Source: Candidatus Doudnabacteria bacterium RIFCSPHIGHO2_12_FULL_48_16 (lineage in GTDB: Bacteria > Patescibacteriota > Doudnabacteria > UBA920 > O2-02-FULL-48-8). Taken from it: DNA of 64,000 bases. The notes under the pieces are model-generated. The model searched no databases and was not told the origin of the DNA. It worked only from the letters and a program-made list of their open reading frames with translations. Below are positions 9,452 to 64,000 of the stretch, in pieces (positions within the stretch are counted from its first letter, which is position 1; every line of letters starts with the position of its first letter). A program made the position numbers and the translations under genes. Where the stretch lies: assembly GCA_001780035.1 (NCBI GenBank), contig MFEY01000004.1, forward strand, positions 81,405 to 145,404. The letters are read 5' to 3'.

Positions 9452-9994
9452 ATGACTGACTCGGAACTCAAACAATTCTTAGAAAGGGCCCAAAACGGCG
9501 ATAGCGCGGCATTTTCCCGCCTTTACGATGAATTTGCCGAAAAGCTATACCGCTTTATTTTCTTCCGCGTCGGCCACAAAGAAGTCGCCGAGGACCTCCT
9601 GTCCGACACTTTTGTCAAAGCTTGGCAAAAATTAAAACAAGTCAACTCCCCCGCGGCCATAACCGGCTGGTTCTACCAGATCGCCCGAAACAACATCATC
9701 GATTACTATCGGATCAAGAAAGATTTTGTCCCACTCGAAGAAGTGGCCGAATTTCTGGAAGACGCAGTCAACCCGATCGATACGATCAATCTGAATATGG
9801 ACCAGGCCAAAATTTTGGAACTGCTGGTCAAGCTGCCCGGTGAACAACGGCTCGTACTCCAATATAAATTTTTTGAAGACTTAACGAACGAAGAGATCGC
9901 CTACATCTTAAATAAAACCGAAGGCGCCATTCGTGTCATTCAGCACCGCGCGCTCATCAAATTGAAAGACTTAGTCAAACGCAAGTCCAAATAA
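9452..9994 (+). CDS. RNA polymerase sigma factor, ECF family
   Basis: Region 2 (AEDLLSDTFVKAWQKL...WFYQIARNNIIDYYR) and region 4 (QRLVLQYKFFEDLTNEEIAYILNKTEGAIRVIQHRAL). Confidence 0.85.
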   Translation: MTDSELKQFLERAQNGDSAAFSRLYDEFAEKLYRFIFFRVGHKEVAEDLLSDTFVKAWQKLKQVNSPAAITGWFYQIARNNIIDYYRIKKDFVPLEEVAEFLEDAVNPIDTINLNMDQAKILELLVKLPGEQRLVLQYKFFEDLTNEEIAYILNKTEGAIRVIQHRALIKLKDLVKRKSK

Positions 9995-11208: not shown

Positions 11209-11258
11209 AATTAGAACTCCCCTCTCCCTCGACGGGAGAGGGGCCGGGGATGAGGGTG
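11209..11258. repeat. GC-rich hairpin element, family D copy 1
   Basis: TTAGAACTCCCCTCTCCC-tcgac-GGGAGAGGGGCCGGGGATGAGGGT. It is nearly identical to 59178-59228, including the preceding TTTCTTCA. Confidence 0.6.
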
Positions 11259-16831: not shown

Positions 16832-18667
16832 CTATTCTCCTGTCACCGCTTGGGTTTGTTGCGCCTGCAGTTCTTTTTTCGCTTCCTCGATCTCGAGGGC
16901 CCGTTTGGGGTCAGTTGTAATTATCTGGTCTTCCATATAGGAAGCGATAATTTTGATCGCCACGTGCTTAATCCCGGCAAAAAATATTCCTTCCCCGACA
17001 TCGGATTCCAGCAGCAGATATTTTTCGCCTTCAGTTAAGAAGAAAGTTTTGGCAATCAGATCCACCGCAGCCGGCGATTGTTTCAACAGCAGCTGAATGG
17101 AGGAATTAGTGACAATTGGCTTGCCGTAAGGGCTTTGTAAAAAGTCGGTAACGTCCTGGGTGATGGTGGTCACGCCCAAATAATATTTGCGGGCGCGCTT
17201 CGCCATGCCGAATAAAAACTTAGCGGAATCATCATGCTGCATCATCCACCAGGCTTCATCTATGACCAAGATGCGTTTTTTGAGCGATGACCGCACGACG
17301 TTCCAGATGTAATTCAAAATGACGTAAATGGCAATTGGCCGGAGCGTATCTTCCAAATCCCGCACCGAAAATACGGCCAGCTGGTTATTTAGATTGATAT
17401 TGGTGGGCTGATTGAAGATGCCGCTGAATGTCCCTTGGGTATATTTGGTCAGCCGCTGCGCCAACGATTCGCCGCCGACCATGCCGGATAAAATTTCAAC
17501 CAGATCCTGCATAATCGGCGGTTCAATATTGTTGAAATTGGAGTTAGCCGTAATGTCTTTTTTGGCATAAGTTTCCCAAAGAGCACGATCCATAATCGCC
17601 TCTTCCGTAGGATCCAGTTTGCCCAACATTAAATTCATGAGCCCCAAAAGGCTGACGACCGCGGCCCGCAGGACATCTTCATTAGTCTCGCCTTCGATGC
17701 CGCGCGGCAAATCAAACGGATTAACCCGGGAATCCGAGTTGAGCGAGATATTGAGGAAGCTGCCGCCGACGGAATCGGACAAATGCTTATATTCGTTTTC
17801 CGGGTCGATGGCGATGACGTCCGCACCAAGCATTAAGGAGCGCAGAATTTCCAGCTTGACCGCGTAACTTTTACCACTGCCCGATTTGGCGAAAACAACG
17901 GAATTGGCGTTTTCCATCTGGAAGCGGTCAAACAAGATCAAACTGTTATTGTGCCGGTTGATTCCATAAAGAATCCCGTCGTTCGAGGTCAGTTCCGAAG
18001 AGACAAAGGGAAACGTCGTTGACAGCGGCTCGGTATTCATATTGGCGGCGATCGCCAGCTCGTCATTGCCGAGCGGTAAGGTGGAATTAAAACCCTGCTC
18101 CATCTGCAGCACGGCGGGCTTGGCGATGATTAATTTCGAGCCAAGCAGCGACTCGAGCGTGGAAGAAAGCTGGTCGAGTTCTTTGAGATCCCCGGCATAA
18201 ACCGTAAAGTAAATAGAGAAACGGAAATATCGTTCCGTGCCTTGCTGCAGCTTGTCCCGCAAAGATTCCACGTCCTGAAAGGCGGTTTGCATCATCGGAT
18301 CGCGGACGTTGCCTTTTTCCTGGCTGATCCGCATGCTGGCTTCGATGCGGCCAACCTGGCTTTTGAGCTTCTTCATAATCTCATCGGTCGACATCGGATA
18401 AATAAACTGGGCCATATCCATTTCCGCATCCATGTTGATGATCGGCGACAGCCAATCAACGGAAACGAACCGCGGGTAAGCCAACACGAAAAATGACCGG
18501 GCAAATTTGCCGGAAATCTCGACCGTATTCTGGCCGACCCGGAATGCCGCCGGAGCAATCAGGTCTTTGAGGGTATTAAGCCCCTCTTTATATTCCCGCT
18601 CCTTCTGCAGGATTTGCCGCTGCAAATCCCGGTTCGGATCGATCGATTGTGATTTAAATAGCGCCAT
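16832..18667 (-). CDS. type IV secretion ATPase, VirB4/TrbE/CagE family
   Basis: Walker A VVFAKSGSGKSYAV and Walker B RILVIDEAWWMM, with VirB4-type N- and C-terminal regions. Confidence 0.75.
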   Translation of the reverse strand: MALFKSQSIDPNRDLQRQILQKEREYKEGLNTLKDLIAPAAFRVGQNTVEISGKFARSFFVLAYPRFVSVDWLSPIINMDAEMDMAQFIYPMSTDEIMKKLKSQVGRIEASMRISQEKGNVRDPMMQTAFQDVESLRDKLQQGTERYFRFSIYFTVYAGDLKELDQLSSTLESLLGSKLIIAKPAVLQMEQGFNSTLPLGNDELAIAANMNTEPLSTTFPFVSSELTSNDGILYGINRHNNSLILFDRFQMENANSVVFAKSGSGKSYAVKLEILRSLMLGADVIAIDPENEYKHLSDSVGGSFLNISLNSDSRVNPFDLPRGIEGETNEDVLRAAVVSLLGLMNLMLGKLDPTEEAIMDRALWETYAKKDITANSNFNNIEPPIMQDLVEILSGMVGGESLAQRLTKYTQGTFSGIFNQPTNINLNNQLAVFSVRDLEDTLRPIAIYVILNYIWNVVRSSLKKRILVIDEAWWMMQHDDSAKFLFGMAKRARKYYLGVTTITQDVTDFLQSPYGKPIVTNSSIQLLLKQSPAAVDLIAKTFFLTEGEKYLLLESDVGEGIFFAGIKHVAIKIIASYMEDQIITTDPKRALEIEEAKKELQAQQTQAVTGE

Positions 18668-45190: not shown

Positions 45191-45230
45191 CTCCCCTCCC
45201 CTGACGAGGGGAGGGGGTCGGGGGTGGGGT
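45191..45230. repeat. GC-rich hairpin element (family C-like)
   Basis: CTCCCCTCCCCT-gac-GAGGGGAGGGGG followed by TCGGGGGTGGGGT. Confidence 0.55.
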
Positions 45231-45234
45231 CAAT

Positions 45235-45790: not shown

Positions 45791-45903
45791 TTCCCCTCCC
45801 CTCCCCTCCCAGGGGAGGGTGGCCGGAGGCCGGGTGGGGTAGTTTATATAAGCTACCTCTCTGTCGCTTCGCGACATCTCTCCTGAAAGGAGAGATGAAC
45901 TGC
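45791..45903. repeat. composite hairpin element: family C tail followed by family B head
   Basis: CCCCTCCCAGGGGAGGGTGGCCGGAGGCCGGGTGGGGTAGTTTAT followed by TATAAGCTACCTCTCTGTCGCTTCGCGACATCTCTCCTGAAAGGAGAGATGAACTGC. Confidence 0.6.
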
Positions 45904-49299: not shown

Positions 49300-49410
49300 C
49301 TATAACTCCCTCGCTAACGCTGTATCTGACGCACCCCCTCTTACATTAAGAGGGGGTAAGACAGCATCTGCCCCTCCCCTTAATGTAAGGGGAGGCTGGG
49401 AGGGGTTATA
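49300..49410. repeat. TIR-flanked double-hairpin element, family A copy 1
   Basis: TATAACTCCC...CCCCCTCTTAcatTAAGAGGGGG...CCCCTTAatgTAAGGGG...GGGAGGGGTTATA. It lies in the ileS leader. Confidence 0.7.
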
Positions 49411-49608
49411 ATTCTTAGTTAAAAAATAAAAACAAATAAAAGCCTTGTTGTTTTGCGATCCCTTCCGCCGGCTGGCGGAGGGAGGTACCATCGCAATTCC
49501 TTTTGGCTCTTAATTCTGCTCTTTACGCCGAGCGCGCGGTAGGCTTCGCATCCGGTTGATAGCCGGCATCGCCTTTAACCTCCATATTATAGCAAATTGG
49601 CCAAAATT

Positions 49609-50702: not shown

Positions 50703-50987
50703 TTACATCCCGCACCTTTTTGCTTGGAGAATACTGTTTTCGAGTCTGATCTTAAGTTCACTTAAGCCCTTACCGTGATGTTTAAGTTTCTTTTCTCTGG
50801 CTGCCGCATCATCCACCGAAAGGTATGCTTCGTAATAAATTAAGTGCCAGGGACCAAACTTACTAGTGAATCCGTTCTGGCCAGAGTTATGTTCAAATAT
50901 CCTTCTGTCCAAATCGTTAGTGATACCAACATAAAATTTTCTTTTCGCGGATGGTTCCAGATTATACAGAATATATGTATAGTACAT
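50703..50987 (-). CDS. GIY-YIG nuclease family protein (UPF0213-like)
   Basis: YYTYILYNLEPSAKRKFYVGITNDLDRRIFEHN...AAAREKKLK. Confidence 0.7.
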   Translation of the reverse strand: MYYTYILYNLEPSAKRKFYVGITNDLDRRIFEHNSGQNGFTSKFGPWHLIYYEAYLSVDDAAAREKKLKHHGKGLSELKIRLENSILQAKRCGM

Positions 50988-52685: not shown

Positions 52686-52792
52686 TATAACTCCCCCGCG
52701 AACTCTCAGTTGACGCACCCCCTCTTACATTAAGAGGGGGTGGAGTAGCGGCTGCTCTCCCCTTAATGTAAGGGGAGGGTGGGAGGGGTTAT
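52686..52792. repeat. TIR-flanked double-hairpin element, family A copy 2
   Basis: Same architecture as 49300-49410. It lies between the argS start and smpB. Confidence 0.7.
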
Positions 52793-52803
52793 TTTTCCTC
52801 CCT

Positions 52804-53253
52804 ATGCCTTCCCTCGCCAACAACCGCAAAGCTTTCCATGATTACTCGATCGAATCCACGCTCGAGGCCGGCTTGGTCTTGGCCGGCCATGAAGTCAAAA
52901 GCATCCGCAACGGGCAGGTCTCGCTCAATGGCGCCTATGTCACGATCCGCCTGGGCGAAGCCTGGCTGCGCAATGCGTATATTGGCAAATACAAACAAGC
53001 CTCGGGCCTGGAGGGCATCGATGAATCCCGCGAACGAAAGCTGCTCCTCAATAAACACGAGATCATTAAACTGCAGGATCTGCTCAAATCCAAAGGCTTA
53101 ACTCTGGTGCCGCTGGAAATTTACACATCCAAGGGGCGGCTGAAATTAAAAATCGGCGTCGGAAGAGGCAAAAAGCAATTCGACAAGCGCGAATCGATAA
53201 AGAAGAAAGAACTTAAAAGAGGCTTGGATAGAAAGATGAGGACGCGGGTATAA
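52804..53253 (+). CDS. smpB: SsrA-binding protein SmpB
   Basis: NRKAFHDYSIE...AGLVLAGHEVKSIRNGQVSLNGAYV. Confidence 0.9.
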   Translation: MPSLANNRKAFHDYSIESTLEAGLVLAGHEVKSIRNGQVSLNGAYVTIRLGEAWLRNAYIGKYKQASGLEGIDESRERKLLLNKHEIIKLQDLLKSKGLTLVPLEIYTSKGRLKLKIGVGRGKKQFDKRESIKKKELKRGLDRKMRTRV

Positions 53254-53727
53254 CTACCTCTCTGTCGGCTTCGCCGACATCTCTCCTGGAAGGAGAGATG
53301 AACTGCAGGTTAATTAAATATATGAAACTGCTTGAAAATTTAATTTTGGGTTCCCGGAGTTTAAGAAAAAACCAAACGCCTTGGGAAAATAAACTTTGGT
53401 ATAATCTCAGAGCCAAAAGATTTAAAGGATACCGTTTCCGAAGACAATTTGTTATTGGTTACTATATAGTTGACTTTTGCTGCTTTGAAAAGAAACTAAT
53501 TATAGAATTAGATGGGGGCCAACACAACGAAGAACAAACTCAACTAAATGATAAAGAAAGAACCGAATTTCTGAAATCACAAGGCTTCAAAGTAATAAGA
53601 TTTTGGAACAATGATATTCAAAAAAATCTCCCGGAAGTTTTAGAAACTATATTAGATAACTTGAAATAAAAAAATCCCCTCCCCTTCCAGGGGAGGGTGG
53701 CGCGAAGCGCCGGGTGGGGTAGTTATT
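53250..53727 (+). mobile_element. TIR-bounded element of about 478 bp carrying a DUF559 endonuclease gene (family B head, gene, family C tail)
   Basis: TATAACTACCTCTCTG (left) and GGGGTAGTTAT (right) are inverted repeats. A gene-less B+C version sits at 54316-54429. The element's first bases overlap the smpB stop codon. Confidence 0.5.
53322..53669 (+). CDS. DUF559 endonuclease-domain protein (Vsr/restriction-endonuclease-like fold)
   Basis: LRKNQTPWENKLWYNLRAKRFKGYRFRRQFVIGYYIVDFCC...IELDGGQHNEE. An alternative start lies at 53298, inside the repeat. Confidence 0.65.
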   Translation: MKLLENLILGSRSLRKNQTPWENKLWYNLRAKRFKGYRFRRQFVIGYYIVDFCCFEKKLIIELDGGQHNEEQTQLNDKERTEFLKSQGFKVIRFWNNDIQKNLPEVLETILDNLK

Positions 53728-53730
53728 ATT

Positions 53731-53757
53731 CTGGTGGAGCTGGGGAGAATTGCACTC
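53731..53757. repeat. 27-bp exact direct repeat of the tmRNA 3' end (the second copy, 53886-53912, is part of ssrA)
   Basis: CTGGTGGAGCTGGGGAGAATTGCACTC occurs identically twice, 128 bp apart. Confidence 0.8.
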
Positions 53758-53886
53758 GTTCGCGCTTATGCGCTCACCTCGGGGCAGCGCCGAAAGCTAT
53801 TAATACGCTTTCGTCGACGCTCGACTTCGGCTGATGCCTCGTCTCGCTTCTGCCCGGAGTGCAATCAATGTGCTTTATTAAATTCC

Positions 53887-54271
53887 TGGTGGAGCTGGGG
53901 AGAATTGCACTCCCGTCCAAAAATTTTTGGCAAACACGTCTACAAGCTTAGACCGCTTTATGGTGTCCCCCAAGCAATAGAAGCGGACCAAAGCTGCTTG
54001 AGGTGAGCTCTAAGTGTCTTTTGGCTGTCGAGCACCGGCCAAAATGAGTCCGGATAATATAACACCTGTGATCCGCGCACAGACTTTACGGAGCAGATGG
54101 GTTATCGCTTAATTAAGCAACAGCCAGAGCAGGAGAGAATGCAAAAGCATTCTTAATTCTGCTTACCAATGAATTGGCATTTATGATTTGCCTTATTTTT
54201 TTAACCGAGAAATTAGGCTAATCGGACTTGCGGTATCTGTCAAAGAACTCTTGTCGAAGCTTAGCAGCCCC
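53887..54271 (-). ncRNA. ssrA: tmRNA (ssrA)
   Basis: Minus-strand 5' end GGGGCUGCUAAGCUUCGACAAGAG and 3' end GGACGGGAGUGCAAUUCUCCCCAGCUCCACCA (T-arm plus acceptor with a G3-U pair). An internal tag-like ORF ends ...SPALAVA-UAA. It is adjacent to smpB. Confidence 0.75.
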
Positions 54272-54281
54272 TCGTCAAAGC

Positions 54282-54310
54282 ATTTTAGCATAATATAAGA
54301 GTATTTTCAA
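54282..54310 (-). promoter_or_regulatory. candidate ssrA promoter TTGAAA-17-TAAAAT
   Basis: Located about 10 nt upstream of the mature tmRNA 5' end. Confidence 0.35.
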
Positions 54311-54315
54311 GCTTT

Positions 54316-54429
54316 TTAATTACCTCTCTGTCGGCTTCGCCGACATCTCTCCTGGAAGGAGAGAATAAACTGCTGATTTGCCCTCCCCTTCCAGGGGAAG
54401 GTGCCGCGAAGCGGCGGGAGGGTAGTTAC
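54316..54429. repeat. gene-less B+C double-hairpin element (a MITE-like derivative of the 53250-53727 element)
   Basis: The family B hairpins (GTCGGCttcgGCCGAC, TCTCTCCtggaaGGAGAGA) and the family C hairpins (CCCTCCCCTtccAGGGGAAGG, GCCGCGAAGCGGC) are directly joined, flanked by ...TTAATTACCTC and GGTAGTTAC. Confidence 0.65.
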
Positions 54430-54483
54430 TCTTTACAAAAACTGTATTTTCCTCTATAATTACTGCGTATTAAACATAAACCG

Positions 54484-54999
54484 ATAGCATTTAGAACTCG
54501 CATCAACAATCAAATAAGAGTCCCGGAGGTCCGCTTGATCGATGACCAAGGCAAAATGCTTGGGATCATGAAGATCGAAGAGGCAATGGCTTTAGCCAAA
54601 GAGCGCGAAGTCGATTTGGTTGAGGTCTCCCCCACGGCCAAGCCGCCGGTGGTCAAGCTTCTGGACTACGACAAATACCGCTATCAGCAGGAAAAAGCGG
54701 CGCAAGAAGCCCGAAAAAAAGTAAAAAAGGTTATGGTCAAAGGGATCCGGCTTTCCGTCCGCATCGGTGACCACGATCTGGTGTTCAAAGCCAAGAAAAC
54801 CTCGGAGTTTCTGGCCGAAGGCCATAAAATCAAGGTTGATGTGGTTATGCGCGGCCGCGAACAGGCCCACCCGGAATTGGCTTTCAATCTCATGAAGCGG
54901 TTTCAGGAAACTATCACCACTCCCTTTGTCAAAGAAACTGGCCCGTCCCGCATGGGGGGAACTATAAGTATAATCATAGCTCCCTCAAGCAAATCCTAA
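54484..54999 (+). CDS. infC: translation initiation factor IF-3, probably with a non-AUG (ATA/ATT-class or TTG) start
   Basis: The in-frame upstream extension ...INNQIRVPEVRLIDDQG matches the IF-3 N-terminus. No ATG is available; the ORF caller used TTG at 54535. A TATAAT box lies at 54454-54459. Confidence 0.75.
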   Translation: MAFRTRINNQIRVPEVRLIDDQGKMLGIMKIEEAMALAKEREVDLVEVSPTAKPPVVKLLDYDKYRYQQEKAAQEARKKVKKVMVKGIRLSVRIGDHDLVFKAKKTSEFLAEGHKIKVDVVMRGREQAHPELAFNLMKRFQETITTPFVKETGPSRMGGTISIIIAPSSKS

Positions 55000-55074
55000 T
55001 GATTCGAATTAGGAATCAGGAATTAGGAATAACGGGGCCCTAATTCATAATTCATTATTCATAATTCCTTTTAC

Positions 55075-55260
55075 ATGCAAAAGACGAACAAGCGAATCAG
55101 CAAAACTTTTTGGAAAACCGGATCCGGCAAGCTTATGCGCCGCAAGTCTGGCCAAGCCCATTTCAACTCCCGCGAACGCGGCAACACCACCAGCAATAAG
55201 CGCCGCGATTTGGCGGTCTCCAAGGCCGACCGCAGAATTTCATTAGTAATGGGTAAGTAA
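55075..55260 (+). CDS. rpmI: 50S ribosomal protein L35
   Basis: A basic 61-aa protein (MQKTNKRISKTFWKTGSGKLMRRK...) following infC. Confidence 0.85.
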   Translation: MQKTNKRISKTFWKTGSGKLMRRKSGQAHFNSRERGNTTSNKRRDLAVSKADRRISLVMGK

Positions 55261-55334
55261 AGATTAAAAATTGCGGATTACGCATTACGGATTAATTCGT
55301 AATCCGAAATCCGTAATTAACTAATTAAACAATT

Positions 55335-55679
55335 ATGACCAGAGTCAAACGCGGCGTTGCCGCCCACAAGCGACGCAAATATTTTCTCAAACGCACCAAA
55401 GGGTTTACCAACCGCCGGTCCACCAACGCAATCGCGGCCAAGGAAGCCTTGCTGCATGCTGATTCTTACACCTATGCCCACCGCCGGCTGCGCAAGCGGG
55501 ATTTAAGAAAACTCTGGACGATCCGGACCAATGCCGCCAGCCGCGAACACGGCATGACGTTCAGCAAGCTGATGGGCAGCCTGCGCAAGCAGCAAATCGG
55601 CATCAACAAAAAAATGCTGGCCGAGCTAGCCGTCCGCCACCCGGAAGTGTTTGAAAAAATCGTCGCTTCGGTTAAGTAA
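55335..55679 (+). CDS. rplT: 50S ribosomal protein L20
   Basis: MTRVKRGVAAHKRRKYFLKRTKGF...LRKLWTIRTNAA. Confidence 0.9.
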   Translation: MTRVKRGVAAHKRRKYFLKRTKGFTNRRSTNAIAAKEALLHADSYTYAHRRLRKRDLRKLWTIRTNAASREHGMTFSKLMGSLRKQQIGINKKMLAELAVRHPEVFEKIVASVK

Positions 55680-55687
55680 GCTTGGAG

Positions 55688-55813
55688 TATAACTCCCCCG
55701 CTGACTCCTTTATGACGCACCCCCTCTTATATTAAGAGGGGGTTTTAAAAAACCTGTCTTTCCTCCCCTTAAAATAAGGGGAGGTGGCGCGTTAGCGCCG
55801 GAGGGGTTAATAT
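55688..55813. repeat. TIR-flanked double-hairpin element, family A variant (loops TAT/AAAA, extra GCGCGTTAGCGCC hairpin). It doubles as the rplT terminator.
   Basis: CCCCCTCTTAtatTAAGAGGGGG is followed by TTTTAAAAAA. Confidence 0.65.
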
Positions 55814-55819
55814 ATAGGC

Positions 55820-56518
55820 ATGTCAACAAAACTTAAATCTATCACTAAAGGCTCTCAAATTATGGATCAAATTTTTTGGGAGCTTTTAAAATTGCTAAAC
55901 AGCGGTCAGCCAGCCACTGAATTAAGCCTGGCGCAGTTTATTAAAAAACGAGCCAAACAATTGGGCGCCTCGGGCTTGGCCTTCCCGCCAATTGTCTCCT
56001 TTGGCCCGAACTCGGCGGAGATTCATCATAAGCCCAACAAAACGCGCATTGGGAAAAACAATTTCTTAATGCTGGATTATGGCGTTAAGGTTAACGGTTA
56101 CTGCTCGGATTTCACCCGGACTTTGTTCCTGGGCAGGCCGCAAAAAATCCACGAAAAAATTTATAACACGGTTCTGAGAGCGCAGTTAGCAGGCTTAAAA
56201 CTGGTAAAACCCGAGGCTGAGTGTTTCCGGATTGATCTGGCCGCCCGAGAAGTAATAATTGAGGCCGGTTTTGGCCGGCATTATAACCACCATACCGGAC
56301 ATGCCGTTGGTAAAAAAATCCATGAACCCCCGAGCTTCTCGGCGACATCTCCCTCCACGCTCTCCGCTTCCCGCTCCCCCCTCATTATGACTGTCGAGCC
56401 TGGTATTTACCTGCCCGGCAGGTTTGGCGTCAGAATCGAGGATATGGTTTTAGTTTCAAACAAGCCCAAGATATTTTCCAAAGTGCCGAAAGATTTTAAA
56501 TCGATGATAGTGGCTTAG
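55820..56518 (+). CDS. M24-family metallopeptidase (aminopeptidase P / methionine-aminopeptidase-like catalytic domain)
   Basis: LDYGVKVNGYCSDFTRT...HHTGHAVG...EPGIY...RIEDMVLV carries pita-bread fold metal ligands. There is an S/P-rich insert (SFSATSPSTLSASRSP). Confidence 0.6.
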   Translation: MSTKLKSITKGSQIMDQIFWELLKLLNSGQPATELSLAQFIKKRAKQLGASGLAFPPIVSFGPNSAEIHHKPNKTRIGKNNFLMLDYGVKVNGYCSDFTRTLFLGRPQKIHEKIYNTVLRAQLAGLKLVKPEAECFRIDLAAREVIIEAGFGRHYNHHTGHAVGKKIHEPPSFSATSPSTLSASRSPLIMTVEPGIYLPGRFGVRIEDMVLVSNKPKIFSKVPKDFKSMIVA

Positions 56519-56521
56519 ATA

Positions 56522-56630
56522 TATAACTCCCCCGCAAACGCTTGATCTAACGCACCCCCTCTTACATTAAGAGGGGGTAAGATAGCAGTTGCTCCTCCCC
56601 TTAATGTAAGGGGAGGCTGGGAGGGGTTAT
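56522..56630. repeat. TIR-flanked double-hairpin element, family A copy 4
   Basis: Same architecture as the other family A copies. Confidence 0.7.
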
Positions 56631-56709
56631 TTTCCAACCAACCGAAAACCGCCTGGGCTTTTCCCGAGGCGGTTTTCGTAATTCCTAATTCGTACTTCGT
56701 AATTCGATT

Positions 56710-59160
56710 CTATTTCACTCCCGCGATAACCTGGTCGATATCGGCGGTATCTTGCTTGTTGGCGACCAGAATTTCTCGCACTTTTTCGAATGCGCTAAGC
56801 GCCTTGGCCTTATCCCCTTTTTGCTGATACGCTAGCCCGAGGCTGTAGTGAGCATTGGCGTATTCGGCATTCAAAGCCACCACTTTCTGGAAAATTCCGA
56901 TAGCTTCATCGTAATTTTTCTGATTGTAGGTGAGGCGACCTTGTTCAAACAAGACGTCCGGGTTAGTCGGGAACAGCCCGGCGGCTTCATCCATTTTCTT
57001 TTTGGCTTCCTCGGCTCTTTGGTCGGCTTCCAAAACGCGCGAGAGCTGGATGTAGAATTCCGGCAGATCATTTTTCAGTTCTATCGCCTTATTTAGCTCG
57101 GCCACCGAATGCTTGATCATTTCCGGATCGATTTTGGTCGGCTGATTGCCATTGGCGTCCGGCTCTTTGGAACTATCAGCCACATTGGCGGCGCCAAAGT
57201 AAGCCTGGCCCAATTGATAGTGCAGCGCCGGATTGTTGGGATCATGCTCAATCGCCGATTTGAGCGAACTAATGACATATTGATCGGCGCCGGCAGCCAA
57301 GGGCTTGATGTCGGCGTAAAACTGCGCCAAGGCCTGCCAGTTGGATGCTTTGGCCGGAGAAATCTGCACGGCCAGTTGGCCGGCTTTGATCAATTCGCTC
57401 ATTAGATTCTGGATTAGATTGGCGTCCGGTTTGGGCTTAGACCCTTCTTCCTGGGCGCGCAAGATTATGCTTTGACCGTAAGTCAGATAATAGACGTCCC
57501 GGTAAGGATTCAGACTGATGGCGCGGGCGAACTGGTTGGAGAGCGCCGTCGGGTCCGGTTTTTCCCGGTTAGCTTGCTTGATGCCGGTGGCGTAGGCGAC
57601 TTCTCCGCCATAAATCGTGGCTTCAAAGAACGCTCCGATCAGAATGGCCGCCAGCAAGAGGAGGGAAACGAACATCCACGATAGCGCAGCGCGAGGCGAC
57701 GATGACATGGACATGGGCGATGATTCCAATTCGCTTTCTTCCCCGCTCATGTGAGCCATAGCCATAAAGACGCCGAGCGAGAGCCAGTAAAGGAAATAAA
57801 ACGTCGCGTTGAAAAAATAGAAGAAGTGAGCGATATAAAGCGCGAGCCAGACGACGAAAAAGCCAAAAGCGTGCTTCCAGCCGACATGCTCGGCTTTTTT
57901 GAGCAAGAAATACAACCCATAAACCAGGAACAGTAGGCTTAAGAGCTCGAACACCAGCAGGCCCAAAATGCCGGTTTCAATGGCGATATTGCCGATCTCG
58001 GACGACGCCCGGTCAAAATTCAGGCTCCAGACAATCGTCTTGTTCAGTTCCGGCGGTTTGATCTGACCAAAAACAATTCCGGTGGTGCCAGGGCCCGAGC
58101 CGAGGATCGCGCTTTTGGCCCCTTCTTTCATGGAGTTGCCAACCAGGGTCCAAGTGGTGGAATTGGATAACTGCACTTCCACCGGCAGGTCAATGTTGAC
58201 CAGGTTGCGGGGGTTAACGGCCGCCGGCAAAAATTGGAACGAAATGAACAAAACGCTGATGACCAGCATGACCATGGGTTTCCAAAACCAGGTCGGCGAG
58301 GATTGATGCTCCCCCTGGATTGCCATGGAGATGGCGAGGAACGCGACCATAGCCAGGCCCAAGACCAGCCAGGCGACAAAGGCGTTGATCAAAAACAAAA
58401 TTGCCAGAGAGACCAAGGTCAGCAGCCACAACATGGCGGTTTTGACCCGGCCCCGGCTGCTACCCATGAAGAACATCCATTGGACAAACACGACAGAGAC
58501 CGCGCTAAAGATCGCCAAACCCACCTGGCTGCCGATGGGATTGAATCCGCGGTTATGGGTAAAGGCCGCTGGCAGAAGATAAATCCCCAACAGCTGGAAC
58601 AAACTGTATACCAAAACGATGCCGGAGCCGAGCAAAAAATAGTTGGTGAGCCGTTTGATTGTCTGTTCCCGTTTCAAGTTGTTGACGATCACGAAGTAAA
58701 ACAAGACCAGGCTGAGGACAGAAATGAAACTACCGGAAAACCGGCCATAATAGCCCAGAAAAGACGAGACCTTATCAATCGACATCAGGCTGGTGAGCAG
58801 GTAAACGCCCAGGTAGGCCAAGAGGATATAATCAAGCGACGTTTTGACCCAGGAGACAGACCGGGTAGTTAAAATTTTAATGACCCAGACAGCCAGCATA
58901 AGGACGACGCCGAAAAAGATCAAGGTCAGTTTGTTGAAGTCGCGGACTTCGGTGGTTAAGGAAGTAAACAGCACCGGCACCAGCAGAACCAAGGCATAGA
59001 GACAGAAATTAATGATCTTGTGGAACCGCGAAAAATCCACAGTCTGGGCGGCCGCCGCCGCATGGCCGGAAGCATGCTGAACCAGGTTGTGGTGGTCAGC
59101 GGCTGGCCCGCCTAGACTCGCGCTAGGCGAGGCTGGTTTGCGCTTCATAAAATCGAGCAT
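56710..59160 (-). CDS. O-antigen ligase/polymerase-like polytopic membrane protein with a C-terminal TPR domain
   Basis: A Wzy_C-like domain of about 12 TM helices, followed by TPR repeats (YHLGQAYFGAAN..., AHYSLGLAYQQKGDKAKA). Confidence 0.55.
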   Translation of the reverse strand: MLDFMKRKPASPSASLGGPAADHHNLVQHASGHAAAAAQTVDFSRFHKIINFCLYALVLLVPVLFTSLTTEVRDFNKLTLIFFGVVLMLAVWVIKILTTRSVSWVKTSLDYILLAYLGVYLLTSLMSIDKVSSFLGYYGRFSGSFISVLSLVLFYFVIVNNLKREQTIKRLTNYFLLGSGIVLVYSLFQLLGIYLLPAAFTHNRGFNPIGSQVGLAIFSAVSVVFVQWMFFMGSSRGRVKTAMLWLLTLVSLAILFLINAFVAWLVLGLAMVAFLAISMAIQGEHQSSPTWFWKPMVMLVISVLFISFQFLPAAVNPRNLVNIDLPVEVQLSNSTTWTLVGNSMKEGAKSAILGSGPGTTGIVFGQIKPPELNKTIVWSLNFDRASSEIGNIAIETGILGLLVFELLSLLFLVYGLYFLLKKAEHVGWKHAFGFFVVWLALYIAHFFYFFNATFYFLYWLSLGVFMAMAHMSGEESELESSPMSMSSSPRAALSWMFVSLLLLAAILIGAFFEATIYGGEVAYATGIKQANREKPDPTALSNQFARAISLNPYRDVYYLTYGQSIILRAQEEGSKPKPDANLIQNLMSELIKAGQLAVQISPAKASNWQALAQFYADIKPLAAGADQYVISSLKSAIEHDPNNPALHYQLGQAYFGAANVADSSKEPDANGNQPTKIDPEMIKHSVAELNKAIELKNDLPEFYIQLSRVLEADQRAEEAKKKMDEAAGLFPTNPDVLFEQGRLTYNQKNYDEAIGIFQKVVALNAEYANAHYSLGLAYQQKGDKAKALSAFEKVREILVANKQDTADIDQVIAGVK

Positions 59161-59177
59161 TTGGTTTGGTTTTCTTC

Positions 59178-59228
59178 ATCTTAGAACTCCCCTCTCCCGC
59201 TCCGGGAGAGGGGCCGGGGGTGAGGGTA
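59178..59228. repeat. GC-rich hairpin element, family D copy 2
   Basis: TTAGAACTCCCCTCTCCC-gctcc-GGGAGAGGGGCCGGGGGTGAGGGT. It is a paralog of 11209-11258. Confidence 0.6.
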
Positions 59229-59306
59229 ATCTAAAATTTAATATTTTTAATAGTTATTAACAGCTATTTCTCCCCAATAATAGCAAATTTTAATAGATTT
59301 GGGAAT

Positions 59307-59790
59307 TATAACTCCCCCGCTAACCCTCAGCTGAGGCACCCCCTCTTACATTAAGAGGGGGTGAACTGCAGATTAATTCTTTGGGCAGTATTCTAAGATT
59401 TTGTCGTATATCCCGTCGATATTTTCTATTACCTCATTATTCCAAAATCTTAATTCTCTAATATCGTTAGCTAATAAATAAGCCGTTCTTTCCTGATCAT
59501 ATTCTTTTTGTTCATCAGCGTGCTGACCTCCATCTAACTCAATGGCTAACCTCAATTCGGGACAATAAAAATCGAGAATATAATACCCGACGCTATATTG
59601 CCTTAAAAATTTATAGTCATTGCATTGTTTATTTCTTAGTACCTTCCAAAGTAACGATTCACAATCAGTTTGATTTTTTCTTAACTGCTGTCTTCGTGAT
59701 TTAATTTTCGGGTTGTTATATATTAGCTTCATCTTTGCGTTAGATGGCAGTTAACCCTCCCTTAATGTAAGGGAGGGTTAGGGTGGGTTA
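59307..59790. mobile_element. Family A element split by a DUF559 gene: a roughly 484-bp putative full-length copy of the family A double-hairpin element
   Basis: The left half is TATAACTCCCCCGC...GCACCCCCTCTTAcatTAAGAGGGGGT (59307-59362). The DUF559 gene lies at 59373-59732. The right half is AACCCTCCCTTAatgTAAGGGAGGGTTAGGGTGGGTTAT (59751-59790). Confidence 0.5.
59373..59732 (-). CDS. DUF559 endonuclease-domain protein
   Basis: LRKNQTDCESLLWKVLRNKQCNDYKFLRQYSVGYYILDFYC...IELDGGQHADEQ. It is a paralog of 53322-53669. Confidence 0.65.
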   Translation of the reverse strand: MKLIYNNPKIKSRRQQLRKNQTDCESLLWKVLRNKQCNDYKFLRQYSVGYYILDFYCPELRLAIELDGGQHADEQKEYDQERTAYLLANDIRELRFWNNEVIENIDGIYDKILEYCPKN

Positions 59791-59792
59791 TT

Positions 59793-62700
59793 TTACGGTG
59801 CTACTGGCTCCCCTGCCTCGCCAGCAGGCAGGTCGGCCGGCGGTGGGGTACCAGAATCAGCTGATGGGGTCACATCTTCTCCGCTTGGCAACTCTGAACT
59901 GGTTTCAGAGTCCCCGGTTTGAGATCCTGCCTGCCCGCCGGCTTGTCCGTCCGTAGTTTCAACGGAGGCGGAAGCGTCAGATGAAGGCTGGGATTCCTCT
60001 ACCGGCGGCTCTTCTGCAGGCGGAGTTTCTTCTCCCCCGCTCGTGCTGTCCCCGGAAACTGTTCCCTGTTCGCTGTTATCTGTCGTCTGACTATTCAAGC
60101 CCGCGTTCTGCAACAGCGTCTGCAACTGATTCTTGTCGATACAAACATCTTCCAGGCAGAGCCGCACGGCCACGATGGTGCCGTCCTCGCCAATGCTCCA
60201 CTTTCCTTGCAAGCCGGCAATGGATTTGACGTTGACGAACGCATGGCCGTTGCCGTCCAGATCCTGGGCCAGACTGATTAGCTGGCCGGAGAGATCCTGC
60301 GCCACATCGATATGCTGATAGCCGAGATTAACAAAAACCAAAACTGAATCTAATCCTTCTGTGCCACCCTGTGAATCTTCCAAAGCAATACCAATGGATT
60401 GGCCCGATTCGGTCATCTTGGCGGCGTATCCTGGCAATTGACTGGAAACAGTCAGCCGATCACCGGCATGGATCTGGCCGTTTTCTTCGGAAACCTTCAC
60501 CGGCACGCGACCAACTAAGGCCACGGGTTTTTGCAGGGCAAGTTTCCCCGGATTTTTCCAATCATAATTCATGACCGGACCCGGGGCCGTGGAAATTACC
60601 CCGATAAGCGTATGAGCGCCGGTGGCTGGGGCCACGGCAAAGCCATCGTCATTCGAGCTGGTGGCCACCATTTCCACAACCTCCCCGGGCTGGGGCGAGC
60701 CTTGGGTGTAATACATTTCGGCGACGTCGGCGGGAGTGGAATAGACATTGGCATCAGAATAGACTGAGCCGTCAGCCGTGATCTTAAAGTGCACAGTATC
60801 CACCCCGGAACCGACCGTGGAATCGGATTCAATGGAGAAGACGGATTGGGCGTCCGTGGATTCTTCAGTATTGATGTAGATACCTTCCAGGTTAGCGGCA
60901 TCGGTTTGGTTAATGACTAATTTACCGGTAGTCGGGCTGGTTTCCCCAATCCCGACGTTGCCGGCGCCTGTAATATGCATCGCTTCTGTTAGAACTCCCG
61001 CGTTATATGTCCGCAATCGCAATGCCGTCGTGCCTGAACTGTCCGAACGACGAGCTTGTAGGTAAGTGATATCACCTCCGGAAATAGGTACCATGTAGAT
61101 ATTGCCTACGGCATAGAATGCGCCGCTAGCGTTAGTGCCACTATCCGCTAACCAAATATCCCCGGAGCTATCAACATCTAATTTCCCCCTAGGGCTCGTG
61201 CTCCCGATGCCGACATTGCCGCCTAAGAAGGCCGCGGCGTAGTTGGCGCCAGCCCCGGTCGGAGTATTCACAGTTAAGCCATAGGCATTAGTCGCGGTCG
61301 AGACAGCGGTGACAGGAACTAAAATACCATGCGAGTTTGTAATGGCTACATTTGTGGACTTGATGGGGTTGGCTACGATTAAGCCTGCGGCATCAGTTAC
61401 GGTCTGGTTGGCATTGGTGCCGACCAGAGTCATGGCACCAATCTGGGCGCCGTAGAAAGTAGCGTAAGTGGTAGGGTCAGCGCCGGAAAGAGTAACTGTG
61501 TGGGCTCTTTGAGTGATACCGGAGACTCCCGCGGCGGCAAAGGTGCCAGTGGAGAGAATATCCAGCTTGGATGCGGGAGCAGTGGTGCCAATGCCGACGT
61601 TGCCGCCATTTAAGATTGTAAGGACTCCACTGCCTGCTCCGGAAGTGCCCAAACGCAAATTATTTCCAGTGGCGGCGTTTACGTCAGTATTTGTGCCGTC
61701 CACTGTGATACTAAACCTTGTGGCAGCTGTAGCGGCAGCGCCAATTCTGAATGCTTCACCTGTGACATCCGCACCCAGAGATAGGTGTAATTTAGTGCCT
61801 GGAGTCGTCGTCCCGATGCCGACGAGGCCGGCGGAATCGATTGTCATCCGCGTGCCCGTACCAGCAGCGCCGTCAGTCTGGAACAAAAGTTTGGAATAAG
61901 CGCTTGTGGCATGATCGTATTGTGCCACAATACCGGCTTCTATTGAGCTGGCTCCCATCAATGAAATCTTGGCGTAATCAGTATTGGCGGCTTGGGTTAC
62001 CAAACCTTGAGTTCGACTGACCGCACGAGTGGTGGTGGAAGATGAATATACGTGCAATAATTGAGCTGGATTCGTCGTCCCGATGCCGACGTTGCCCCCT
62101 AAGAACGCCGCCGCATAGTTGTTGGTAGCGCCAGTGGAAGCATTTACTGTCAGGCCGTAAGAATTAGTGGCGGTAGAAACAGCAGTAGCGGGAATCAAAA
62201 TTCCGTGAGTATTGGTAAGAGCCACATTCGTAGATTTAATCGGGTTGGCTACAATTAGTCCGGCCGCATCTGTGACGGTCTGGTTGATATTAGTGCCTAC
62301 TAAGGTCACAGCACCAATCTGGGCGCCGTAGAAAGTGGCGTAAGTAGTTGGGTCTGCGCCGGAGAGAGTGATGGTGTGGGCTCGCTGTGTAATTCCAGAA
62401 ACGCCGGCTGCGGCAAAGGTACCGGTGGAAAGAATATCCAGCTTGGAGGCGGGAACGCTAGTCCCAATGCCGACGTTGCCACTTGGAACAATGAAATTTT
62501 CTGTGTCCCGAGGAACCTGCCAAATATTGTGATAAACACTTGAGTAATATGTACGGAATAAAACATCGTCTGTTCCACCTGCTCCATCAATGAGGATTTC
62601 AGCATAGTTATTGTCAGCTCCACCAAGTGTCGAGCCTTGTCTCCAGGCTATACGCGGACTACCACCAGCTACGTCAGAAGATGAAATGATGCCGACTACG

Positions 62701-64000
62701 TCCAAAGGATTGATCGGATCCGTCGTCCCGATACCGACGTTGCCGGAACTTTCTATCCTCATCCTCTCCACTGCCGCCGAGGTAGTGGCTGTGCCGAATA
62801 CCAAGGCCGTGCTGTTGACTGTGGCGCTAAAAGTCGCTTCTGCTTCTGCCCAGATTCCAGCACCGGCGAGTATTGCATCAGAGCCATCGGATTCTAATGG
62901 TGAATTGAAATTGATTCTTCCTAGTTGATCATCATCAATGATGGTGAGTTCCTTGGTGGATAAAGTGAGAATACCTGCGCTTGTTGCTCCTGTGCCTACT
63001 GGTCCTTGGACGTCGAGAAGGGATTGCGGGACGGTGGTATTGATGCCGACGTTGCCATCCTTAGTCAGACGCATCTTTTCGGTTGGAGAGGTATCACCGG
63101 TTTCCCAAGCGAAGTATCCACCGCCTGCCGCAAACGAACCACTCGTCTGAATCTTCGTTCTGAAAACAAGACCTGCGCCAGAACCGTTCGGACGAAGCAT
63201 CTCCATCTCTGATGTGGCCAACTTCAGGCCGTAAGTTGTACTCGGAGCGCTGAGAATCAGGCCGAACTGCCCGACCGTGTCGGTCGTGTTGATATCTAGT
63301 TTCTGGCTTGGGTCTGTTCTCCCGATGCCGACTTCACCAGTGCCTAAGATCGTCATGCGGGCCGTATTGGCCGTGCCGAAATGGATATTCTTATTTGTGC
63401 TTAAAGTACTGGCATACAAGATGGTGTCGTAAGCGCTACTACCCGGAAGCAGTGCGCCAGCAGAGCTACCCTCAACTGCCAAATAACCGTTGTTGCCCGT
63501 ATTGGCAAATCCTAATACCACTCCGTTAGTTCCAGTAGTTGAAGTTATTTGCACCCGGCCGGTTGCCGCCTGAACTTCCAGCGGGAAGACTGGATTCGTC
63601 GTCCCGATACCCACATTCCCTCCCAAGAATGCTGCGGCATAGTTGTTGGTTGCGCCAGTTGGAGTATTAACTGTCAGGCCGTAAGAATTAGTGGCGGTAG
63701 AGACAGCGGTAACAGGAATTAAAATTCCATGAGTATTGGTGAGAGCCACATTAGTGGATTTGATTGGGTTGGCCACGATCAGACCAGCGGCATCTGTGAC
63801 GGTCTGGTTGATATTAGTGCCAGCCAAAGTCATGGCACCAATCTGAGCGCCGTAGAAGGTAGCGTAAGTAGTCGGGTCAGCGCCAGAGAGAGTGACTGTG
63901 TGTGCTCTTTGAGTGATACCGGAAACCCCGGCGGCGGCAAAGGTGGCTGTTGGGAGAATGTCGAGTTTGGAAGCCGGGCTTGCTGTGCCGATACCGATAT
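59793..64000 (-). CDS. giant tandem-repeat surface/fibre-like protein. It is N-terminally incomplete: the ORF stays open to the window edge.
   Basis: At least four repeats of about 165 aa (…AGVSGITQRAHTITLSGADPTTYATFYGAQIGAVTLVGTNINQTVTDAAGLIVANPIKSTNVALTNTHGILIP…GGNVGIGTT). It has a C-terminal globular region and an acidic S/P/E-rich tail. Region 63834-64000 continues the repeat in frame with no stop codon. Confidence 0.5.
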   Translation of the reverse strand, partial: IGIGTASPASKLDILPTATFAAAGVSGITQRAHTVTLSGADPTTYATFYGAQIGAMTLAGTNINQTVTDAAGLIVANPIKSTNVALTNTHGILIPVTAVSTATNSYGLTVNTPTGATNNYAAAFLGGNVGIGTTNPVFPLEVQAATGRVQITSTTGTNGVVLGFANTGNNGYLAVEGSSAGALLPGSSAYDTILYASTLSTNKNIHFGTANTARMTILGTGEVGIGRTDPSQKLDINTTDTVGQFGLILSAPSTTYGLKLATSEMEMLRPNGSGAGLVFRTKIQTSGSFAAGGGYFAWETGDTSPTEKMRLTKDGNVGINTTVPQSLLDVQGPVGTGATSAGILTLSTKELTIIDDDQLGRINFNSPLESDGSDAILAGAGIWAEAEATFSATVNSTALVFGTATTSAAVERMRIESSGNVGIGTTDPINPLDVVGIISSSDVAGGSPRIAWRQGSTLGGADNNYAEILIDGAGGTDDVLFRTYYSSVYHNIWQVPRDTENFIVPSGNVGIGTSVPASKLDILSTGTFAAAGVSGITQRAHTITLSGADPTTYATFYGAQIGAVTLVGTNINQTVTDAAGLIVANPIKSTNVALTNTHGILIPATAVSTATNSYGLTVNASTGATNNYAAAFLGGNVGIGTTNPAQLLHVYSSSTTTRAVSRTQGLVTQAANTDYAKISLMGASSIEAGIVAQYDHATSAYSKLLFQTDGAAGTGTRMTIDSAGLVGIGTTTPGTKLHLSLGADVTGEAFRIGAAATAATRFSITVDGTNTDVNAATGNNLRLGTSGAGSGVLTILNGGNVGIGTTAPASKLDILSTGTFAAAGVSGITQRAHTVTLSGADPTTYATFYGAQIGAMTLVGTNANQTVTDAAGLIVANPIKSTNVAITNSHGILVPVTAVSTATNAYGLTVNTPTGAGANYAAAFLGGNVGIGSTSPRGKLDVDSSGDIWLADSGTNASGAFYAVGNIYMVPISGGDITYLQARRSDSSGTTALRLRTYNAGVLTEAMHITGAGNVGIGETSPTTGKLVINQTDAANLEGIYINTEESTDAQSVFSIESDSTVGSGVDTVHFKITADGSVYSDANVYSTPADVAEMYYTQGSPQPGEVVEMVATSSNDDGFAVAPATGAHTLIGVISTAPGPVMNYDWKNPGKLALQKPVALVGRVPVKVSEENGQIHAGDRLTVSSQLPGYAAKMTESGQSIGIALEDSQGGTEGLDSVLVFVNLGYQHIDVAQDLSGQLISLAQDLDGNGHAFVNVKSIAGLQGKWSIGEDGTIVAVRLCLEDVCIDKNQLQTLLQNAGLNSQTTDNSEQGTVSGDSTSGGEETPPAEEPPVEESQPSSDASASVETTDGQAGGQAGSQTGDSETSSELPSGEDVTPSADSGTPPPADLPAGEAGEPVAP

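Follow-up and report, generated by a model that had tools for sequence, protein, structure and literature searches.

DUF559 nuclease genes at the centre of inverted intrastrand triplex motif pairs: a candidate selfish unit in bacteria

Introduction

What does a small nuclease gene do between the two halves of a repeated hairpin element? The question is raised by a 64,000-nt stretch of the Candidatus Doudnabacteria contig MFEY01000004.1 (the window), which belongs to a genome from Rifle groundwater and contains two genes of the DUF559 family, each set among hairpins that also recur without a gene. The initial annotation of this DNA took the hairpins for terminal inverted repeats (TIRs) of a new class of mobile element driven by the nuclease. 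The present analysis retains a recurrent unit of gene plus hairpin modules with derivatives, but identifies the hairpins as variants of known repeats, termed BoxC, PIT or “intrastrand triplex motif” (TM). The link between DUF559 and TMs is general, extending across more than 10 phyla and well beyond this genome.

Catalogues of BoxC/PIT/TM repeats date back to the 1990s, and we know of no study that established their function, origin, spreading mechanism or partner protein. Early descriptions are said to go back to Bachellier and colleagues in the 1990s and to Hoyne and Maher in 2000 and 2002. A TM carries a G-rich third strand that would be able to fold back as an intrastrand triplex on single-stranded DNA. 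The E. coli consensus, TMECO, reads CCCTCNCCC N3-6 GGGNGAGGG N3 GGGNGAGGG, and triplex formation of a TMECO oligonucleotide was demonstrated by circular dichroism and nuclear magnetic resonance; TMs are present in 23 copies in E. coli K-12, five as inverted pairs, and in more than 260 genomes, and their E. coli loci are hypervariable (Holder et al., 2015; PMC4666352). A literature search on gene and repeat names found no paper linking DUF559 or its E. coli member YcjD to these repeats. The novelty suggested by the initial annotation holds for the pairing, which none of the papers searched describes, and not for its components, since repeats and protein family were each already known.

Two DUF559 genes inside hairpin composites

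Both genes of the window lie between inverted TM modules. In the following list, repeat modules are given without strand, fold z compares the stability of the fold with shuffled sequence, and the mirror rule counts the positions at which the third strand mirrors the purine arm of its hairpin, with G facing G and either A or T facing A.

53249 to 53300: TM module B, C-tail orientation (fold z = -4.46; third strand mirrors purine arm 8/8; repeat family D12)
53300 to 53321, plus strand: centre or spacer containing GAACTGCAGGTTAATT, the AACTGC part of which also occurs in the gene-less centres at 54364 and 45895
53322 to 53669, plus strand: DUF559 (YcjD-like, Vsr-fold) nuclease gene 1, 115 aa (Pfam PF04480, E = 4.9e-42, 142.7 bits)
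53677 to 53727: TM module C, G-tail orientation (fold z = -3.23; mirror rule 9/9)
59307 to 59363: family A left TM (fold z = -4.16; mirror rule 9/10)
59373 to 59732, minus strand: DUF559 nuclease gene 2, 119 aa (Pfam PF04480, E = 6.3e-34, 116.6 bits)
59752 to 59790: family A right TM, with hairpin 59752-59780 and third strand GGGTGGGTTA at 59781-59790 (fold z = -6.32; mirror rule 9/10; inverted repeat I12)

Locus 1 (53249-53727, 479 bp) consists of module B, gene 1 and module C. In module B, the third strand (53249-53262, TATAACTACCTCTC) is followed by a mini-hairpin (53265-53277) and the main hairpin (53278-53300); in module C, the hairpin (53677-53697) precedes a mini-hairpin (53699-53711) and the third strand GGGTGGGGTAGTTAT, which ends at 53727. 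Locus 2 (59307-59790, 484 bp) begins with the family A left arm, made up of third strand (59307-59320), mini-hairpin (59325-59336) and hairpin (59337-59363), and continues with gene 2 on the minus strand and the right arm. The stop codon of gene 2 lies inside GAACTGCAGATTAATT, and GGCAGTTAAC, just before the right TM, forms an inverted repeat with the AACTGC on the left. The initial annotation had described locus 1 as a B head, a 115-aa DUF559 gene and a C tail, and locus 2 as a family A element split between its hairpins by a 119-aa paralog on the opposite strand; both descriptions are borne out. Its further claim that the gene-less B+C element at 54316 equals the first unit minus the open reading frame (ORF) agrees with the alignment, in which the B arm matches at 46/47 and the C arm at 35/38 plus 10/12 positions, with a centre of 17 nt as opposed to ~378 nt. 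Intact family A copies have 16-20 nt between the two hairpins.

The two loci share a 16-mer, GAACTGCAGRTTAATT, which does occur in the window only at 53300 and 59363 (0.09 matches expected by chance). Two roles were considered for it, a cleavage site and an end of a gene cassette; the latter was rejected, because the two genes are oppositely oriented to it and its AACTGC is present in gene-less centres. The 16-mer is part of the centre of the repeat composite, not of the gene cassette.

Both proteins exceed the PF04480 gathering cut-off of 20.6 bits over the full domain and share 48% identity. By these matches they are DUF559 proteins with a Vsr-like PD-(D/E)xK fold and a restriction-endonuclease-like core. 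Their Pfam matches comprise only DUF559, MTES_1575 and PvuRts1I-like models, with none to Vsr (PF03852), and a match to NCBIfam PRK09767 (1.4e-30) stays under the equivalog cut-off. The nearest solved structure for protein 1 is PDB 3HRL, an uncharacterised Neisseria ‘endonuclease-like protein’ (E = 2.4e-25). Seven putative active-site residues (E22, D51, E62, D64, H68, D77 and R93) are invariant in 86 homologues and all present in protein 1, the alignment reference; aligned pairwise to it, protein 2 retains the DF...ELDGGQH...RFWNN motifs. An alternative upstream ATG of gene 1 at 53298 would extend the protein to 123 aa; the homologues agree with the 115-aa start. A ratio of nonsynonymous to synonymous substitution (dN/dS) of 0.05-0.15 and stop codons in only 3/86 copies place the protein under strong purifying selection. 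DUF559 is the only ORF of the units, in which none of the known transposase classes (DDE, HUH, serine or tyrosine) is represented, and no cytosine methyltransferase gene is adjacent to either gene in the window. Gene 1 is neighboured by smpB and the transfer-messenger RNA (tmRNA) gene, and gene 2 by the genes of a giant surface protein and a TPR protein.

The hairpins are variants of BoxC/PIT/TM repeats

All modules share one architecture, in which a hairpin, C/T-rich in its 5' arm and composed of purines in its 3' arm, is followed, directly or past a GC mini-hairpin, by a G-rich segment that mirrors the purine arm. In the window, stems measure 8-13 bp, within the 6-15 bp that define such a motif, and loops 3 nt, and the hairpins are far more stable than shuffled sequence (z -3.2 to -6.3). 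The mirror rule applies to 7/7 modules tested, with 8/8 to 10/10 matching positions, and this includes the TATAAC.../...GTTATA ends. Across loci, third strands match their own purine arm to at least 0.9 in 59% of cases, compared with 4% when paired with foreign arms (match 0.92 for own versus 0.81 for foreign arms). Left and right tails of family A show the same difference as their own hairpins (GGGGGAG versus GGAGGGG), which ties the tails to their own hairpins and not to each other. Read in this way, the TATAAC/GTTATA ends are predicted triplex third strands, each mirroring the purine arm of its hairpin. Their interpretation as Watson-Crick TIRs was rejected, as each tail follows its own hairpin and not the opposite tail.

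On these sequence features, the window hairpins are variants of BoxC/PIT/TM repeats and not a new repeat. They diverge in the second loop, defined as N3 in the TMECO consensus and 1-6 nt in ITxF: family A right arms and single TMs have a 3-nt offset, while modules B, C and A-left carry 14-19 nt in the form of the mini-hairpin, a variant that also occurs in Alphaproteobacteria. The initial annotation had allowed that the hairpins might be ordinary terminators that happen to flank the genes. This reading was rejected, since they have no T-runs and PIT elements showed neither promoter nor terminator activity in published tests (PMC4666352).

A broader version of this idea would have the flanks work at the RNA level in the DUF559 transcript, as structured untranslated regions, terminators or a stem that sequesters the ribosome-binding site, and not as DNA-level signals. 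The purine arm or G-tail indeed lies 8-40 nt upstream of the start codon, where it could act as a Shine-Dalgarno sequence, and G-tail and C-tail could pair across the mRNA. Such a role is nevertheless very improbable, given that the two family A tails each match the mirror of their own hairpin (9/10) and differ mutually at two positions, as the triplex rule predicts, that RNA does not fold into purine-motif triplexes and PIT elements are inactive as promoters or terminators (PMC4666352), and that most copies have no gene. A search of Rfam likewise returned no matching family for the window or 14 other loci.

DUF559 genes are bracketed by TM pairs in many phyla

For comparison, 80 loci with relatives of protein 1 were assembled from one genome per species, together with several from an exact look-up. 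They cover phyla of the Candidate Phyla Radiation, Alpha- and Gammaproteobacteria, Melainabacteria, Dehalococcoidia, Elusimicrobia, Deinococcus and Rickettsiales. Nearly every one of these loci has its gene enclosed by an inverted TM pair whose two arms carry reverse-complementary loops. An inverted-repeat score of at least 15 between the two flanks, upstream and downstream, is reached by 63/85 DUF559 genes and by 7/660 controls, which were small ORFs of the same loci (Mann-Whitney p = 3e-41), as the initial annotation had anticipated for DUF559 genes elsewhere. TM-type hairpins with a C/T arm reach a density of 5.8/kb within 150 nt of the gene versus 0.089/kb elsewhere (~65-fold), and 76/83 loci have at least one beside the gene. 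A first, regex-based TM finder was dropped as too insensitive.

The commonest layout runs from hairpin to G-tail, gene, C-tail and hairpin, with unit spans clustering at 428-440 bp. Third strands point inward in most taxa and outward in a minority type comprising the window, L187, L188 and Deinococcus; the gene stands at the dyad centre in either orientation. In two loci (L099 and L073), the inverted repeat runs more than 120 nt past the TMs. Solo TMs of a locus have the same stem and loop type as those that flank its DUF559 gene. NGO0050 of Neisseria gonorrhoeae, which encodes the protein of PDB 3HRL, and a gene on a Deinococcus plasmid are also TM-flanked. The TMs beside DUF559 differ by a p-distance of 0.06 (6%) where the synonymous distance (dS) in the adjoining gene is 0.36-0.74, a ~6-10 fold conservation over synonymous sites that places the repeats, like the protein, under strong constraint.

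These figures bear on the explanation that the association is indirect, TMs being generic structural elements of intergenic DNA or recombination hot-spots, dense in this genome, between which small horizontally acquired genes land. The hypervariability of E. coli TM loci (PMC4666352) would suit such a process, and within the window recO and an M24 peptidase gene are likewise flanked by TM modules, which makes flanking alone weak evidence there. What is specific to the DUF559 loci is the split at the centre of the composite, not mere flanking. An indirect association of this kind can almost be dismissed in view of the ~65-fold enrichment, the 63/85 versus 7/660 comparison, the recurrence of one gene family throughout more than 10 phyla, and TM sequences that co-vary with the gene copy and are conserved over synonymous sites.

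Two loci show further arrangements. In L184, a 2.17-Mb Neisseria gonorrhoeae record labelled as a plasmid, the repeats on either side of NGO0050, ~90 nt long and with a TM at the end of each, are direct and not inverted. L034 contains tandem arrays of truncated TM hairpins with a 44-nt period (9690-9960 and 16990-17620), which form a minisatellite-like repeat expansion and are positioned beside the DUF559 unit and 7 kb away from it.

The unit is discrete, occurs at unrelated sites and has gene-less derivatives

Among unit pairs with at least 80% DNA identity, 38/50 have no flanking synteny within 3 kb on either side, and their homology starts and stops at the TM hairpins. The same holds for two copies on one contig (L037 and L067), which are 88% identical. 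Homologues of protein 2 with 83% and 72% identity are found in the family A arrangement next to T2SSE/polA (L187) and LigD (L188), neighbours that differ from those in the window, with the gene placed exactly between AACTGC and GCAGTT. A gene-less copy of 151 bp in L040 retains the left TM with roughly 30 nt from the start of the ORF (85 nt of the left end in all) as well as the right TM. It has lost ~290 bp, like a miniature inverted-repeat transposable element (MITE) that has arisen from an autonomous parent by internal deletion.

An empty site was identified between smpB and ssrA. In the related Doudnabacteria of L107, L109, L112 and L114, smpB abuts the tmRNA gene or is separated from it by a short terminator-like hairpin, while L104 has a gene-less TM pair; the DUF559 unit is found only in the window among the Doudnabacteria compared. 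The unit is thus discrete-ended and non-syntenic, with an internal-deletion derivative and an empty orthologous site. The comparison of occupied and empty sites proposed by the initial annotation yielded an empty allele in relatives; at the unit ends of 43 loci, no systematic target-site duplication was found. Strain-level contigs 99.8-100% identical to the window (L001-L018) have no indels and yielded neither empty nor filled alleles.

Could the unit be a classical transposon, moved by cut-and-paste or copy-paste, with the TMs as terminal inverted repeats bound by a DUF559 transposase? Inverted terminal modules of 35-60 nt, the compact size and the gene-less derivatives would all be expected. 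TnsA of Tn7 is a PD-(D/E)xK nuclease that acts in transposition. This precedent, listed among transposases (PMC3424549), requires TnsB, whereas the DUF559 protein of ~115 aa has no DNA-binding or strand-transfer domain. Together with the lack of a target-site duplication, the occurrence of both inward and outward third-strand arrangements, and inverted repeats that continue more than 120 nt past the TMs, this renders a classical transposon improbable.

Two further observations concern sites of this kind. A perfect 27-nt direct repeat (53731-53757 and 53886-53912, 128 nt between copies) follows immediately after the first DUF559 unit and corresponds to the 3' end of the tmRNA gene (53887-54271, minus strand); absent from relatives, it resembles an att-type scar of an element formerly integrated at ssrA. 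In addition, the slot downstream of a giant surface-protein gene and/or upstream of a T2SSE gene is occupied in several Doudnabacteria by DUF559 genes of differing paralogue lineages (protein-1-like in L019 and L022, protein-2-like in L187 and the window), which hints at cassette replacement at one site.

Gene-less copies and other features of the window

The following TM elements of the window are gene-less.

45799 to 45895: C-then-B pair, third strands inward (the common arrangement), ~7 nt apart, between a 1124-aa gene and recO
49301 to 49412: family A composite (repeat comparison)
52686 to 52795: family A composite between argS and smpB (repeat comparison)
54316 to 54430: B+C composite of two TMs, third strands outward, 17-nt centre (alignment; fold z = -5.81)
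55688 to 55815: family A variant, right arm with a module C-like mini-hairpin (repeat comparison)
56522 to 56633: family A composite (fold z = -6.18; mirror rule 9/10 in both arms)
59189 to 59227: canonical single TM, CCCCTCTCCC-loop-GGGAGAGGGG CC GGGGGTGAGGGT (repeat family D10; mirror rule 10/10)

The pair at 45799-45895 is a third B/C copy with the order opposite to that of locus 1, and the single TM has sister copies at 11219-11257 and 45193-45231. Unrelated to TMs are AT-rich intergenic repeats, ATTTGAAATTTG and AATTAGGAATCAGGAATTAGG, at 18671-51323 (families D2, D7 and D11), 55001-55067, 55270-55330 and 56677-56710, often imperfect palindromes around ribosomal-protein genes. A 94-aa GIY-YIG nuclease ORF (50703-50987, minus strand) lies between a small ORF and argS and has no TM flanks; another small GIY-YIG gene, in L089, is bracketed by a different 50-nt inverted repeat. 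The C-terminal part of a NosD/beta-helix surface protein, which exceeds 4,600 aa in full contigs and has internal 300-nt repeats, occupies 59793-63833 (minus strand).

ycjD and TM numbers in E. coli

In E. coli K-12, a degenerate hairpin lies at the stop codon of the DUF559 gene ycjD, and TMECO #9 follows ~170 nt downstream of the gene. Between ycjD and TMECO #9 (L103, 1351040-1351407) lies a degenerate duplicate of the last ~20 ycjD codons (ENMETVLENIRQGLNR...), probably left by another DUF559 unit that has since decayed or by copying that was aborted. A published survey (PMC12817139) notes ycjD in place of the eefRABCD operon in phylogroups A, B1 and C, and the same exchange, of independent origin, in ST69 and ST182. 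TM loci also vary between strains: K-12 has the hrpB-mrcB BoxC pair, UPEC957C lacks it, and in N5D43 it is collapsed to a single hairpin. In a spread sample of 59 chromosomes, the median TM count is 15 in ycjD-positive genomes (range 9-24) and 3.5 in ycjD-negative ones (range 1-13; p = 2e-9), a difference that is confounded by phylogroup. By analogy, the lower count without ycjD resembles REPINs decaying after the loss of their RAYT.

Proposed mechanism and competing explanations

At slightly better than even odds, the two loci of the window are full-length copies of a selfish unit of ~430-480 bp, homing-like or REPIN-RAYT-like, in which an inverted TM pair encloses a nuclease gene at its dyad centre. 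Gene-less TM pairs and solo TMs would then best be read as non-autonomous derivatives or empty targets of the unit. The part played by the nuclease in mobility, that is in cleavage, target choice and copying, is what we infer from this arrangement. It would recognise DNA by its folding into a hairpin, triplex or cruciform instead of by a long sequence, and would cut at or near the centre of the TM pair. Host recombination could subsequently repair the break from a gene-bearing copy, with the TM arms of 35-50 nt serving as homology, and the net result would be homing into a repeated palindromic target. The same cutting in trans might lead to gain, loss and collapse of TMs, described as ‘genomic instability’. 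Because the gene is found at the dyad centre in both third-strand orientations, targeting of the palindrome centre fits better than fixed transposon ends. Structure-guided cutting is favoured by the extended palindromes and the dyad-centre position, taken together with a hydrolytic core of ~115 aa that is too small for long sequence recognition and incomplete as a transposase.

Several observations weigh against such a selfish unit. A hydrolytic PD-(D/E)xK nuclease alone is unable to rejoin DNA, and a literature search found no biochemical or genetic report of a DUF559/YcjD-type protein cutting TMs. In E. coli, Holder et al. found neither mobility genes in the vicinity of TMs nor TMs within mobile elements (PMC4666352). 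A systematic target-site duplication is missing (longest direct match at the ends 3.95 versus 3.69 in controls, 43 loci), and near-identical unit copies at different sites, which would indicate recent multi-copy spread, were not found. Exact copies of the two window proteins are restricted to one syntenic locus each, in contigs that are 99.8-100% identical. In E. coli, ycjD is single-copy at essentially one fixed locus in 3377/5426 genomes, with no ongoing spread seen. TMs are present in 5408/5426 genomes and thus persist without blastn-detectable ycjD; gene-less elements in genomes without DUF559, which the initial annotation had named as refuting its proposal, are therefore formally a fact in ~2,030 E. 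coli genomes, which in the sample of 59 chromosomes carry markedly fewer repeats. To these can be added the phylogroup confounding of the TM counts and the TM modules beside recO and the M24 peptidase gene. DUF559 is also rare on plasmids (34/72,556) and phages (2/50,697), which fits a host-beneficial gene equally well and led to the rejection of both as vehicles, and strong purifying selection is as compatible with a host-beneficial gene as with a selfish one.

Much of this would be accommodated if DUF559 were a host-serving, structure-specific nuclease that processes TM hairpin or triplex DNA in fork rescue, repair or defence, while the TMs spread by other means and flank the gene through autoregulation or local accumulation. 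The low dN/dS with invariant putative catalytic residues, the fixed single-copy ycjD, the rarity on plasmids and phages, and TMs in E. coli genomes without ycjD all agree with this, as does the Caulobacter DUF559 protein VsrA, a chromosomal Vsr-like nuclease (PMC12907096). A host function would leave unexplained why homology between copies stops exactly at the TMs in unrelated contexts, with two copies on one contig, why an internal-deletion derivative keeps the start of the ORF, and why the site is empty in relatives; regulation, moreover, would not account for the dyad-centre position in both TM orientations. We consider host service unlikely on balance, although it deserves serious attention, and continue to prefer the selfish unit.

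More tentatively, and with rather less than even confidence, YcjD-type DUF559 proteins may be the missing enzymes of BoxC/PIT/TM repeats, the two together constituting a new, phylum-spanning selfish class that recognises structure and copies gene and repeats through induced breaks. If this is true, a YcjD-TM class would account for an orphan protein family and for the ‘genomic instability’ of TM loci alike. DUF559 is among the commonest orphan nuclease families, and its link to TMs gives both open questions direct tests in E. coli K-12 with ycjD and 23 TMs. Should the nuclease act on folded DNA, it would exemplify a new mode of end or target recognition by a mobile element and could, in addition, be useful as a structure-specific nuclease.

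Comparison with known systems

The closest relatives of the window repeats are the BoxC/PIT/TM elements themselves, which are likewise intergenic, multi-copy, often arranged as inverted pairs and variably present between strains. Single window TMs such as 59189-59227 fit the TMECO architecture, although each arm is one pair longer and the second loop measures 2 nt. The A, B and C families differ in the mini-hairpin of the second loop, in A/T-extended stems and in forming mostly composites with third strands outward. The bracketed DUF559 gene, present here and in 76/83 other loci, is a link unreported by Holder et al.

With Vsr and Caulobacter VsrA (PMC12907096), the DUF559 proteins share the fold and the catalytic core, and they are often named ‘very-short-patch-repair endonuclease’. 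In the window, however, their context consists of repeats rather than a dcm-vsr pair, and they do not match PF03852.

The IS200/IS605 family and MITEs resemble the unit in their subterminal DNA hairpins, the lack of target-site duplication, a single-stranded DNA stage that is probable here too, and short non-autonomous derivatives with internal deletions. Unlike IS200/IS605, the DUF559 unit has neither TnpA nor TnpB, its ends are symmetric inverted copies, and its protein cannot form covalent DNA intermediates.

REP sequences, REPINs and their RAYTs were reportedly described by Nunvar in 2010 and by Bertels and Rainey in 2011. In both systems, a usually single-copy gene is flanked by inverted structured repeats of a family that is scattered gene-less in the genome, paralogues are paired with distinct repeat families (in the window, gene 1 with B/C and gene 2 with A), and repeat number follows the presence of the gene, as for ycjD and TMs in E. 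coli. Only this genomic logic is common to both: the DUF559 unit has a Vsr-like PD-(D/E)xK hydrolase in place of an IS200-type Y1/HUH transposase and a hairpin capable of triplex formation in place of a REP, and the DUF559 gene itself has apparently relocated between related genomes.

Finally, the same fold occurs among free-standing and intron-borne homing endonucleases such as I-Ssp6803I and I-Bth0305I (PDB 3R3P), the latter grouped with Vsr and DUF559 (PMC3424549). As with these enzymes, a small nuclease gene lies inside the sequence that it would target, gene-less alleles exist (the composites of the window, and the smpB-ssrA site that is empty or gene-less in relatives), and spread would use host recombination, for which a target-site duplication is not expected. 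DUF559 differs from these enzymes in that it does not reside in an intron, an intein or a protein-coding host gene, and its putative target is a repeated non-coding palindrome that is probably recognised by its structure.

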